Origin: Escherichia phage p000v
Direction: 5' to 3' (one strand)
Sequence record: NC_055781.1
DNA: 64,000 nucleotides
Part shown: in pieces, positions 21,556-32,710 of the stretch
Position numbering within the stretch: position 1 is the stretch's first letter
How the letters are laid out: every line of letters starts with the position of its first letter
The notes under the pieces: model-generated
The model's database searches: none
What the model was told of the DNA's origin: nothing
The model's input: only the letters and a program-made list of their open reading frames with translations
Made by a program: the position numbers and the translations under genes

Positions 21556-22044
21556 ATGAATATATTTGAAATGCTTCGTAATGACGAAGGTCTTAGACTG
21601 ACTTTATACAAAGACACCGAAGGCTTTTGGACGATTGGCATAGGCCATTTGGTAACAAAGAACCCGTCTTTAGCCGTAGCTAAAGCTGAACTTGACAGAA
21701 TGATCGGTCGTAAATGCAACGGCACAATTACCCTTGATGAGGCTGAAAAGCTATTTAATGAAGACGTTGATAAAGCCGTTCGTGGAATCTTGGGTAATGC
21801 TAAACTTAAACCAGTGTATGATTCTTTAGACGCGGTTCGTCGATGTGCATTAGTCAATATGGTCTTCCAAATGGGTGTAGCAGGCGTCGCAGGTTTTACT
21901 AATTCTCTTCGTATGCTTCAACAGAAACGTTGGGATGAAGCGGCAGTAAATCTAGCCCAATCTAAATGGTATCGTCAGACACCTAATCGCGCGAAACGCG
22001 TAATCTCAACATTTAAAACAGGAACTTGGAAAGCGTATATATGA
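21556..22044 (+). CDS. e: endolysin (T4 lysozyme E)
   Basis: [32 protein letters not shown]...; near-colinear with T4 lysozyme; start ATG 21556 with GGGAGG SD. Confidence 0.95.
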
Positions 22045-26135: not shown

Positions 26136-26186
26136 GTTTACTTCTCCTCTAGTTGTGTTACTATAGACCTGTCAACTAGAGGAGAA
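26136..26186 (+). promoter_or_regulatory. early-type promoter embedded in 14-bp RBS-sequestering inverted repeat
   Basis: GTTTAC; TTCTCCTCTAGTTG pairs with CAACTAGAGGAGAA (SD of gene at 26193); TACTAT -10 in loop. Confidence 0.6.
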
Positions 26187-26192
26187 ATCAAA

Positions 26193-26651
26193 ATGACTAT
26201 CAATTCGGAAGTTTTTATCCGTCGCAATAAACTCCGTCGAATCTTTGAAACGGAGTTTCGTCAAATCAACGCCAGTATAAAAGATGCTGCAAAGTCTCTT
26301 GGACTACCAGGCTTTCATATAAAGTATTCTCAACATCTCTTAGATCGTGCCATCCAGAGAGAAATAGATGAGAATTACGTTTTTGAATTATTTCATAAAG
26401 TAAAAAATCATGTTAAAGAAGTTGCAGAATTTTTATCAATGCCGGCACGTCCAGATGTTGATGAAGATTTTGTCGAAGGTGTCGAATATCGCCCAGGCCG
26501 TTTAGAAATAACTGACGGAAATCTTTGGTTAGGACTTACAGTCTGTCGCGAAAATCCAGCATTCAAAATGAAGACTCTTCAATGCAGAATGGCTATTATT
26601 AACAGTAAACGACTACCAGGAAAAGCTTCTAAAGCAGTGATTAAAATCTAG
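26193..26651 (+). CDS. hypothetical protein
   Basis: 152-aa ORF with sequestered SD. Confidence 0.6.
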   Translation: MTINSEVFIRRNKLRRIFETEFRQINASIKDAAKSLGLPGFHIKYSQHLLDRAIQREIDENYVFELFHKVKNHVKEVAEFLSMPARPDVDEDFVEGVEYRPGRLEITDGNLWLGLTVCRENPAFKMKTLQCRMAIINSKRLPGKASKAVIKI

Positions 26652-26659
26652 AGGTAAAC

Positions 26660-27202
26660 ATGAGAAAAGCACTACTCGCTGGTCTATTTGCTCTTTCGTT
26701 ATCAGCACATAGCTCCGAGCATACTTTTAGTAATGTCCAACTCGATAACTTGAATTATGCTTATCAGTTTGGGGAACAGTTTTCTAAGGATGGAAAATTT
26801 AAAACGCATGAAAATATGCATAAGAAAGGACTTGGATACATAATGGCCGCAATACTATGGCAGGAATCATCTGCCGGTATTAATCTTAAAGATAAGAAAG
26901 GTCACCATGCGTATGGAATGTTCCAAAACTATCTACCAACAATGAGGGCAAGAATTAACCAGCTCGGTTATAATATGACTGATGCCCAAATTAAGAAAAT
27001 GCTATCTAAGCGGTCTAATTCAGCAAGATGGGCTTATATCGAATTTTCTTATTGGTTAAATATACATAACGGGGATATAAGAAAAGCTATATCCTCATAT
27101 AATGCGGGATGGAAGACAAGTGCTGGAAGTAAATATGCTTCTGAAGTCCTAGAAAAGGCTAATTACCTTAAATCAAATAAACTACTGGAAATAAAAGAAT
27201 GA
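26660..27202 (+). CDS. secreted lytic-transglycosylase-like (SLT domain) protein
   Basis: Signal peptide MRKALLAGLFALSLSAHS; SLT motifs QESS, YGMFQ, SSYNAG. Confidence 0.75.
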   Translation: MRKALLAGLFALSLSAHSSEHTFSNVQLDNLNYAYQFGEQFSKDGKFKTHENMHKKGLGYIMAAILWQESSAGINLKDKKGHHAYGMFQNYLPTMRARINQLGYNMTDAQIKKMLSKRSNSARWAYIEFSYWLNIHNGDIRKAISSYNAGWKTSAGSKYASEVLEKANYLKSNKLLEIKE

Positions 27203-27546
27203 CCAAAATGTTGGCTTTAATAGTTGGCTTGGTTTCATTTAACGCTCTTGCTAATACTACATATACTGATGTAACGGAGTATACAAACAGAACGGCGTCT
27301 GATTATTGTGGTAAAAGTCAAGAGTGTAAAGTAGATTTTTCACAAAAATTGTTATATGCATATAAAGACGGAGAAAAAGATGGGGCGTCTAGTAGGTTCA
27401 AGGCGTCTACCTTAATTAAAAGATACTATAAAAAATGGCAAATATTAGAATGCTCGGTGGCGGAACCTAAAGATAAGGCAGCATGCAATTCTATGGTGGA
27501 CCGTCTAGTTGACTCTTATACTAGAGGACTTGCAGCAAGTGATTAA
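27199..27546 (+). CDS. secreted small Cys-containing protein
   Basis: Signal peptide MTKMLALIVGLVSFNALA; four Cys; ATGA-coupled to SLT gene. Confidence 0.6.
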   Translation: MTKMLALIVGLVSFNALANTTYTDVTEYTNRTASDYCGKSQECKVDFSQKLLYAYKDGEKDGASSRFKASTLIKRYYKKWQILECSVAEPKDKAACNSMVDRLVDSYTRGLAASD

Positions 27547-28006
27547 AAACTATATCAAGGGCGATATTGTCGCCCTGTTTTCTGAAGGTAAAAATGTTGC
27601 TCATGGTTGTAACTGTTTCCATACAATGGGCGCAGGAGTAGCCGGGCAATTAGCGAAGGCCTTTCCAAAGATTTTAGAAGCCGATAAACTTCAAACCGAA
27701 TTCGGAGACGAGTCTAAACTTGGGTCTTATTCGGTTTATGAAAAATATTTTAAGACCCATAAAGCTTATTGCTTTAATCTTTATACACAGTTTGAGCCGG
27801 GACCTAATTTTGAGTACTCTGCTTTAATGAATTGTATAATAGAATTAAATGAATTCGGAAAAAATAAGATAACAAAGCCTGTAATTTATATGCCAAGAAT
27901 TGGTGTAGGTATAGGTGGTGGAAACTGGGATATCATTGAAGAAATTCTTGATACATATTCCACTAAACTAGAAATTGTGATTGTTGATTGGGAACCATTG
28001 CTATGA
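27539..28006 (+). CDS. macrodomain protein (TARG1/OARD1-DarG-like), non-ATG start
   Basis: GDIVALF...VAHGCNCFHTMGAGVAGQLAKAF and MPRIGVGIGGGNW motifs; no in-frame ATG before the GDI strand; GTG 27539 proposed (TTG 27509/27530 alternatives). Confidence 0.65.
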   Translation: MIKNYIKGDIVALFSEGKNVAHGCNCFHTMGAGVAGQLAKAFPKILEADKLQTEFGDESKLGSYSVYEKYFKTHKAYCFNLYTQFEPGPNFEYSALMNCIIELNEFGKNKITKPVIYMPRIGVGIGGGNWDIIEEILDTYSTKLEIVIVDWEPLL

Positions 28007-29269: not shown

Positions 29270-29572
29270 ATGGCCTTAAGAGCGATAGCTGTCATGGCGA
29301 TGCTGGGTTTTTTTGCAGCAACAACTCCTATCGTTGGTACTGCACGTATTGACCCATATTTTGATAACTTTATGGAATCAGGGATTAAAAACGTATATAC
29401 TTTGTTCGAAATTCAAAATGTTGAGAATTCTGAAAAATTCTATAAGTATATGGCAAAGCATTACAAAAATAGCCCCTGTGATGATGCATTTGAATGTCAT
29501 GAACAAGGCATAAAAACTGCCAGACAATTTGCTGAGTTCATGAAAATAAAATTAGAGCCTACATCTATCTAA
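29270..29572 (+). CDS. rI: lysis inhibition regulator RI (antiholin)
   Basis: MALRAIAVMAMLGFFAA signal-anchor then IDPYFDNFMESGIKNVYTLFE...; matches T4 RI as recalled. Confidence 0.85.
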   Translation: MALRAIAVMAMLGFFAATTPIVGTARIDPYFDNFMESGIKNVYTLFEIQNVENSEKFYKYMAKHYKNSPCDDAFECHEQGIKTARQFAEFMKIKLEPTSI

Positions 29573-32443: not shown

Positions 32444-32710
32444 ATGAAAAAATTAGTAATTGGTTTATTCGCAGTAATGATGACATTCTCTGTTGGTGCT
32501 ACCACGGGTGCAGGAGCTGGTGGTGGCCAGTCTTCTGCGCCTTCTAACGGTTCGGTAAATGCATCACATTCTCAGGGTATTGAGAACATTAAATCAAGCT
32601 ATATTAATAGCACGGCCGGACAAGCAACTGAAGCATGGTCAAAGGGTCGAGTAGTTACTCGCTCTGTATTCTGTGATATGCCTAATTATGTTGCTAAGTG
32701 TGATAAGTAA
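32444..32710 (+). CDS. secreted small protein
   Basis: Signal peptide MKKLVIGLFAVMMTFSVGA; Gly/Ser-rich; two Cys near C-terminus. Confidence 0.6.
   Translation: MKKLVIGLFAVMMTFSVGATTGAGAGGGQSSAPSNGSVNASHSQGIENIKSSYINSTAGQATEAWSKGRVVTRSVFCDMPNYVAKCDK

Follow-up and report, generated by a model that had tools for sequence, protein, structure and literature searches.

Predicted export of a lytic transglycosylase-like protein and a four-cysteine partner encoded by the T4-type genes vs.1 and vs

The gene vs of T4-like phages has long been labelled as encoding a modifier of a cytoplasmic enzyme, valyl-tRNA synthetase (ValRS). In the 64,000 nucleotides of Escherichia phage p000v analysed here (NC_055781.1; this whole stretch is called the window), the vs open reading frame (ORF) begins with a putative export signal, and its start overlaps the stop codon of vs.1, whose predicted product resembles a secreted murein-cleaving enzyme. 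In which compartment, then, would Vs act, and does it act together with Vs.1? We tentatively favour, giving it nearly an even chance, the reading that the two genes specify a periplasmic pair, a 'specialised' lytic transglycosylase (Vs.1) and a disulfide-stabilised modulator (Vs), where the pairing itself is what we infer. As a gene call the locus is routine; its value lies in the mismatch between a decades-old cytoplasmic label and the exported look of the family.

ORF1 (26660-27202, + strand, 180 amino acids) would encode the precursor of a periplasmic family-1 (GH23/SLT) lytic transglycosylase, and ORF2 (27199-27546, + strand, 115 amino acids) that of an exported four-cysteine, four-helix protein. 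As an earlier reading made from the letters alone (the sequence-only reading) had it, the two overlap in an ATGA (27199-27202, +), read directly as the stop of the first and the start of the second and a putative site of translational coupling. Around the pair, a 2-kb stretch matches Mosigvirus phages (S143_2, SCS57, JS09 and others) at 97-98% identity, and both ORFs are 98-100% identical to proteins of many deposited Mosigvirus genomes. ORF1 shares about 83% identity with T4-type Vs.1 and falls in phrog_600 (unknown function, 3.7e-67), and ORF2 shares 67% with T4 Vs and falls in phrog_1256 (valyl tRNA synthetase modifier, 5e-35). Judged by these similarities, the phage is T4-like, of the Mosigvirus type, and the ORFs are its orthologues of vs.1 (T4 Y06E, P13311) and vs (T4 P13310, VS_BPT4); ORF2 belongs to the family of T4 Vs (phrog_1256, PF26829) both by homology and by its position directly 3' of vs.1. 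Apart from sequence drift, the T4 junction differs only in its 8-nt overlap, against 4 nt (ATGA) here. Both genes are thus already known, named genes of T4, which the sequence-only reading had overlooked, along with the published SLT likeness of the first and the cytoplasmic label of the second. In public phage records, Vs is often labelled 'valyl-tRNA synthetase', that is, as the enzyme itself, and Vs.1 frequently bears a wrong name ('endoribonuclease', 'site-specific RNA endonuclease' or 'RegB'), apparently taken over from its neighbour.

The N-termini were examined with a crude heuristic of our own, which combines n-, h- and c-regions with the -3/-1 rule. An N-terminus passes if its n-region is positive, if 8-20 uncharged residues make up a hydrophobic h-region and if the residues at -3 and -1 are small, and the protein must have neither a lipobox nor a further transmembrane segment. 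The heuristic was applied to the 165 ATG-initiated ORFs of at least 60 amino acids in the window, as well as to 34 homologues of ORF1 and 39 of ORF2. As a result, four of the 165 window ORFs were flagged, namely ORF1, ORF2, rI (29270) and an 88-amino-acid ORF (32444), so that the adjacent calls on ORF1 and ORF2 are not a matter of chance. The rI antiholin (29270-29572, +; Pfam Antiholin, 2.8e-24; phrog_1246, lysis inhibition), 1.7 kb 3' of vs and known to be periplasmic, was the positive control. ORF1 begins with MRKALLAGLFALSLSAHS followed by SEHT, which has a net positive charge at its N-end, a hydrophobic core free of charges and the site A-H-S; its predicted signal peptide (residues 1-18; 26660-26713, +) would be cleaved between AHS and SE. 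ORF2 begins with MTKMLALIVGLVSFNALA followed by NTTY, with the predicted signal peptide again at residues 1-18 (27199-27252, +) and cleavage between ALA and NT.

The signal-like N-terminus is shared by 32 of the 34 ORF1 homologues and 37 of the 39 ORF2 homologues, and the four misses look, from their sequences, like wrong or truncated start calls (truncated ones for the two Vs proteins). The Vs.1 leader is hydrophobic in every aligned member, conserved in character and not in sequence, and the Vs leader likewise keeps its signal-peptide character while its sequence drifts. The flank charge of the Vs signal is +2 towards the N-terminus and -1 towards the C-terminus, from which the positive-inside rule places the body of Vs outside. 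A lipoprotein or membrane-anchor reading of the N-termini was rejected, since position +1 holds no lipobox Cys and the C-terminal body falls outside according to its flank charges. Both products thus look Sec-exported, with signals of the signal peptidase I type, in line with the signal peptides proposed by the sequence-only reading. Independently, the depositors of Acinetobacter phage Lazarus marked vs.1, vs and two downstream ORFs, adjoining rI, as secreted. Full-length His-tagged T4 Vs was insoluble in the cytoplasm and was recovered only in inclusion bodies (Zhang et al. 2021, PMC8076793). We found no mention of a Vs signal peptide in the searchable literature.

Is Vs.1 then a murein-cleaving enzyme? 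The catalytic motif set of family-1 lytic transglycosylases (E-S, G-L/M-M/F-Q and A/S-Y-N-x-G), already picked out in ORF1 from the letters, is complete there as E69-S70 (codons 26864-26869, +; the predicted catalytic Glu-Ser motif), G86-M-F-Q89 and S146-Y147-N-A-G150. Throughout the 34 homologues, which range down to 39% identity, E69, S71, G86, Q89, N90, Y147, N148, G150 and Y159 are invariant, and position 70 is either Ser or Thr. The spacing from E-S to GMFQ (86-89) and on to YNAG (147-150) matches that of family-1 lytic transglycosylases such as Slt70. Pfam SLT matches 31 of the 34 homologues at E <= 0.01 (best E = 1.3e-7). Searches of PDB sequences with the Vs.1 sequence and profile gave no lytic transglycosylase, only chance matches to metacaspases, and a fold search was therefore needed. 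The structure model (predicted local distance difference test, pLDDT, 89.3) has a lysozyme-like, all-helical catalytic fold, and all leading Foldseek matches are GH23 or lysozyme-like. On the strength of model and motifs, ORF1 has the fold of a family-1/GH23 lytic transglycosylase and keeps the full set of catalytic motifs, and the corresponding activity is predicted; after the predicted cleavage the protein would have about 18.7 kDa and a predicted isoelectric point of about 9.6. Since e, at 21556-22038 (+), and the lysozyme domain of gp5, at 5046-4555 (-), lie elsewhere, ORF1 is a third, separate muralytic domain in the window, just as had been supposed. The SLT likeness is not new, having been in print since 2003/2006: a marginal but conserved match in six T4-like genomes was described by Nolan et al. 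2006 (PMC1524935), who cite earlier PSI-BLAST results on vs.1. Our searches of the searchable library found no functional study of vs.1.

Compared with the family-1 enzymes Slt70, MltC, MltE and MltF, to which it is only 13-20% identical, Vs.1 differs in being a single domain with no lipid anchor and no superhelical or LysM domain, and in being phage-encoded and expressed early. In size and make-up it resembles the specialised lytic transglycosylases that serve envelope-spanning machines, of the EtgA (type III secretion), VirB1, IpgF and FlgJ/SltF types, which are likewise small single-domain SLT proteins, and like them it is predicted to be exported by Sec. The comparison with EtgA and its partner EscI does not extend to Vs, which is unrelated to EscI. 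Around vs.1 lie regB, tk, rI and the gene of a macro-domain anti-DarT factor, with no secretion or assembly genes that would point to an envelope-spanning machine, and no such machine is known from early T4 infection. In Kuttervirus and Felixounavirus, vs.1 lies among non-structural hypothetical genes, and in Kuttervirus it adjoins a recombination endonuclease subunit.

We next consider Vs itself. Its four cysteines (37, 43, 85 and 96), which had been noticed from the sequence, are four of the ten invariant columns among the 39 aligned members, which range down to 22% identity. In the model (pLDDT 87.4) the protein forms four helices (13-37, 41-64, 69-85 and 90-114), with Cys37 and Cys43 flanking the first turn and Cys85 and Cys96 the third. 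The two pairs thus correspond to a C-x5-C across the turn between helices 1 and 2 (codons 27307-27327, +) and a C-x10-C across that between helices 3 and 4 (codons 27451-27486, +). Because the helices run up-down-up-down, the first and third turns would lie at the same end of the predicted bundle, and this arrangement therefore fits two disulfides. Mature Vs would have about 11 kDa; for T4 Vs, the computed masses are 11.0 kDa when cleaved and 13.1 kDa for the precursor. A natural truncation occurs in Escherichia phage vB_EcoM_005 (locus L009:1693-1950), whose 85-amino-acid orthologue has lost the first cysteine pair and helix 2 through an internal deletion, whereas its signal peptide and C-terminal half remain; the gene may be a pseudogene.

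Searches for distant relatives of Vs led back to its own family. An exhaustive phmmer search with Vs over 1.84 billion representatives returned 7 matches, all phage Vs fragments or orthologues. When T4-type sequences were joined in a profile with remote ones (Erwinia Cronus, Klebsiella K65 and Acinetobacter Lazarus), 42 proteins were retrieved, all with precomputed PF26829, those with a source name coming from T4-like phages. Local searches of Pfam, NCBIfam and PDB sequences gave nothing meaningful, and the model has no known structural relative. Nor does Vs resemble, in sequence or fold, the known murein-hydrolase inhibitors Ivy, PliC/MliC, PliG, PliI, Tsi3, Spackle and LprI/DUF1311. The likeness to periplasmic inhibitors is rather one of type: Ivy, PliC/MliC, PliG, Tsi3, Tgi and T4 Spackle, which acts against the gp5 lysozyme, are small, Sec-exported and often disulfide-bonded, as is predicted for Vs, and the type VI secretion system immunity proteins Tsi3 and Tgi are encoded beside the gene of the enzyme, as vs lies beside vs.1. 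Spackle, moreover, is a helical early protein of T4.

The link between the two proteins comes from gene order. In 11 phages of the Tevenvirinae and the Acinetobacter Twarogvirinae, the distance between the end of vs.1 and the start of vs ranges from -8 to +2 nt, and every Vs homologue with an examined locus stands directly 3' of a vs.1. The order regB-vs.1-vs-tk.4 is kept in the Tevenvirinae loci examined, and in Acinetobacter phage Lazarus vs.1-vs is present with neither regB nor tk.4 at the locus. The Shine-Dalgarno sequence 5' of vs is weak here and in T4 (other genera have GGTGG), which fits translational coupling. In phages with a second Vs subtype (Erwinia Cronus, Klebsiella K65 and Acinetobacter Lazarus), a third signal-peptide protein, phrog_4957, with two conserved cysteines and of unknown function, follows vs directly (loci L010:2603-3019, L011:2609-3001 and L012:2585-3010); no homologue of it was found in the window. 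In Lazarus the run of vs.1, vs, this third ORF, orf132 and rI is annotated by the depositors as secreted throughout. A tblastn count over phage records gave 2,059 with a Vs.1-like gene, as compared with 794 that have T4-type Vs and about 385 that have the second Vs subtype.

Data published for T4 allow the two genes to be compared in expression and fitness. Both vs.1 and vs are classed as early RNA and middle protein, and both proteins were detected by mass spectrometry (Wolfram-Schauerte et al. 2022, PMC9697503); the regB RNA is likewise of the early class (PMC9697503). A lack of expression, which the sequence-only reading had named as a refutation, thus does not apply to T4. In the genome-wide HIDEN-SEQ transposon screen both genes are non-essential, and in liquid LB their insertion counts (vs 26.6, vs.1 22.6) are about ten-fold under those of neighbouring genes (regB 179, tk.4 290, vs.3 652) (bioRxiv 10.1101/2025.11.20.689424). 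On passing from LB to minimal medium (M9Glc), vs is the strongest depleted T4 gene, with a log2 fold change of -2.19 (q = 0), and vs.1 reaches -0.87 (p = 0.0055, q = 0.16); in the comparison of K-12 with the clinical isolate CFE299, vs.1 gives -1.20 (q = 0.015) (same preprint). These similar signatures fit a shared pathway, and the heavier cost of losing vs in M9 would suit a Vs that restrains the enzyme. In the same screen e is essential with vs.1 intact (mean count 2.5), so that Vs.1 cannot replace the endolysin, and insertions in sp and imm are neutral (bioRxiv 10.1101/2025.11.20.689424).

Put together, the periplasmic pair that we tentatively favour would work as follows. Both genes would be transcribed early together with regB, and translation of vs would begin at a start codon that shares bases with the stop of vs.1; Sec would export the two precursors, and signal peptidase I would remove their signals. 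Mature Vs.1 would be a soluble, single-domain family-1 (GH23/SLT) lytic transglycosylase of EtgA/VirB1-type size and make-up, which may cut the sacculus of its infected host to a limited, non-lethal extent in early to mid-infection, as opposed to bulk lysis. Mature Vs would form a four-helix bundle in the periplasm, with the four invariant cysteines locking one of its ends, and might modulate Vs.1 by restraining or by targeting the enzyme. Together they would raise phage yield, with the clearest gain on cells that grow slowly in minimal medium. If this holds, T4-like phages gain an early cell-wall-remodelling module that bears on how they cope with slow-growing or clinical hosts, and an old unexplained T4 function is reassigned.

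Several points weigh against this reading. ORF1 itself scores only 18.8 bits (E = 0.0013) against Pfam SLT (PF01464), below the gathering score of 21.3. The four cysteines of Vs could form a Zn(Cys)4 site instead of disulfides. As to the coupling that had been read from the ATGA, the overlap and the abutting start in 11 phages stand, but tight or overlapping junctions are the rule across the whole early region, so coupling is plausible and not specific to this pair. Vs.1 homologues with a signal peptide and no detectable Vs downstream occur in Aeromonas phage Aes508, Slopekvirus, Kuttervirus and Felixounavirus, and the enzyme therefore does not need Vs. Contact between Vs and Vs.1 is putative, and the 19 gene pairs at hand are too few for covariation. 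The similar fitness defects could also reflect polarity of vs.1 insertions on vs. Finally, a ValRS-binding role of T4 Vs has been published, and the authors of the screen read the minimal-medium phenotype of vs as a tRNA-synthetase effect (bioRxiv 10.1101/2025.11.20.689424).

This last point leads to the label. Annotations equate T4 Vs with tau, the peptide bound to cytoplasmic ValRS, after the biochemistry of Neidhardt, Marchin and Muller as it is cited in PMC8076793, and the name 'valyl-tRNA synthetase modifier' is attached to the T4 orthologue in UniProt (VS_BPT4, PE=1), RefSeq and phrog_1256. An export signal predicted on Vs fits poorly with that label, which is hard to square with the conserved leader, the invariant cysteines, the flank charges of +2 and -1 and the neighbours that encode secreted proteins. 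The fault may lie in the ORF assignment, in the in-vivo relevance of the tau-ValRS complex or in the predicted topology. A size of about 10-11 kDa has been reported for tau, in agreement with the exported and processed form. A bolder claim, which we consider doubtful while quite conceivable, is that the ValRS label is wrong or incomplete and that Vs is a Sec-exported, cysteine-locked protein acting with exported Vs.1 on the cell wall. The tau-ValRS complex would then stem from the mixing of compartments on cell breakage or from the product of another ORF, and the minimal-medium phenotype of vs would be one of the envelope, not of translation.

The textbook account survives best among the alternatives, and we hold it unlikely, if far from negligible. 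According to it, Vs is cytoplasmic tau, which binds host ValRS and alters its stability, its position merely reflects a compact region in which overlapping junctions are common, and Vs.1 is an unrelated exported enzyme. The database labels and the cited biochemistry speak for it, as does the finding that vs, of all T4 genes, is depleted most strongly in minimal medium, where amino-acid supply matters. It leaves unaccounted for, however, a Sec-type signal peptide that persists in 37 of 39 members despite sequence drift, a body placed outside by the positive-inside rule, four invariant cysteines at helix ends and, in Acinetobacter phages, a vs gene that stands among successive genes for secreted proteins, the last of them rI. 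The insolubility of cytoplasmic His-Vs (PMC8076793) also counts against it, as does the size: tau, at about 10-11 kDa, agrees with the 11.0 kDa computed for cleaved T4 Vs and not with the 13.1 kDa of its precursor.

A stricter version of the pair, in which Vs is a stoichiometric periplasmic inhibitor that prevents premature lysis by Vs.1, as with the type VI muramidase effectors and their Tsi/Tgi proteins or gp5 lysozyme and Spackle, seems to us distinctly unlikely. Both proteins are predicted to be exported and are encoded side by side with the small partner downstream, T4 e mutants fail to lyse even though Vs.1 is made, and the greater loss for vs than for vs.1 in M9Glc (-2.19 against -0.87) is what an unrestrained, harmful enzyme would lead one to expect. 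On the other hand, Vs.1 occurs alone in many phages, and in LB the two genes are about equally depleted, so that loss of Vs.1 is not neutral. Of the enzyme/inhibitor pair suggested in the sequence-only reading, it is thus the obligate form that is weakened, by the Vs-less Vs.1 proteins of Aeromonas T4-likes, Slopekvirus, Kuttervirus and Felixounavirus.

Improbable, too, is an auxiliary lysin, that is, a second, holin-independent murein enzyme, Vs.1 helped by Vs, for conditions in which E is less effective, such as slow growth, modified peptidoglycan or clinical isolates. The predicted Sec-exported muralytic fold and the larger fitness cost in minimal medium and on CFE299 would suit such a lysin, but the genes are of the early RNA and middle protein classes, not late, vs.1 is not part of a lysis cassette, in Kuttervirus and Felixounavirus too, and e is essential despite vs.1. 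The early/middle expression and the essential e with vs.1 intact likewise make bulk lysis unlikely as the form of the lysis role once proposed for ORF1. The weakest alternative, which we judge very improbable, makes the pair an envelope-defence or lysis-inhibition module together with Imm, Sp and rI, acting against superinfection, against lysis from without or in the sensing of lysis inhibition: the proteins are early/middle and periplasmic by prediction, like Sp and rI, the Lazarus genes vs.1, vs, two secreted ORFs and rI are contiguous and rI is only 1.7 kb downstream in the window, yet no mechanism links a glycan-cleaving enzyme to exclusion, defects in single infection are unexpected for pure exclusion, and the neutrality of sp and imm insertions, while vs and vs.1 are depleted, suggests a different role.

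The surroundings of the pair are those of T4. T4 and Mosigvirus records share the order regB, vs.1, vs, tk.4 (macro domain), tk.3 to tk.1, tk and rI. The 5' neighbour of vs.1 is the regB endoribonuclease gene (26193-26651, +; Pfam REGB_T4, E = 1.6e-69), whose stop codon is overlapped by the Shine-Dalgarno sequence of vs.1, AGAGG (26650-26654, +); a GAGG-type site precedes vs.1 in most of the homologous loci compared. Upstream of regB, a site resembling T4 early promoters, GTTTAC-17 nt-TACTAT (26136-26164, +), was read directly from the sequence; it is below the threshold of a sigma-70 scan and is the probable start of the regB-vs.1-vs transcript. The Shine-Dalgarno sequence of regB, AGGAGAAA (26178-26185), contains GGAG, the motif cleaved by RegB itself, which would fit autoregulation.

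On the 3' side, vs overlaps tk.4 (27539-28006, +; GTG start at 27539; Pfam Macro, 7.4e-06), the T4 product of which is named AdfM, an anti-DarTG2 macrodomain factor (bioRxiv 10.1101/2025.11.20.689424). Within the 5' end of tk.4, 12 nt 3' of the vs stop, lies a strong hairpin, AGGGCGATATTGTCGCCCT, followed by GTTTTCT (27558-27576, +). It is kept in T4, UPEC01, Bp7 and CBH8 (in CBH8 with loop changes) and absent from kv_tblp8 and IME523, whose KGDIVAL codons differ. The hairpin could be an attenuator, an RNA-processing site or a mere by-product of conserved macro-domain codons, and because it overlaps those codons we set this terminator-like element aside and do not claim it as regulatory. Farther downstream, the 88-amino-acid ORF flagged by the heuristic (32444-32710, +; phrog_2243, function unknown) combines a clear signal peptide with a stretch rich in Gly and Ser and a pair of C-terminal cysteines, and is the sole other unexplained secreted-looking ORF within the window.

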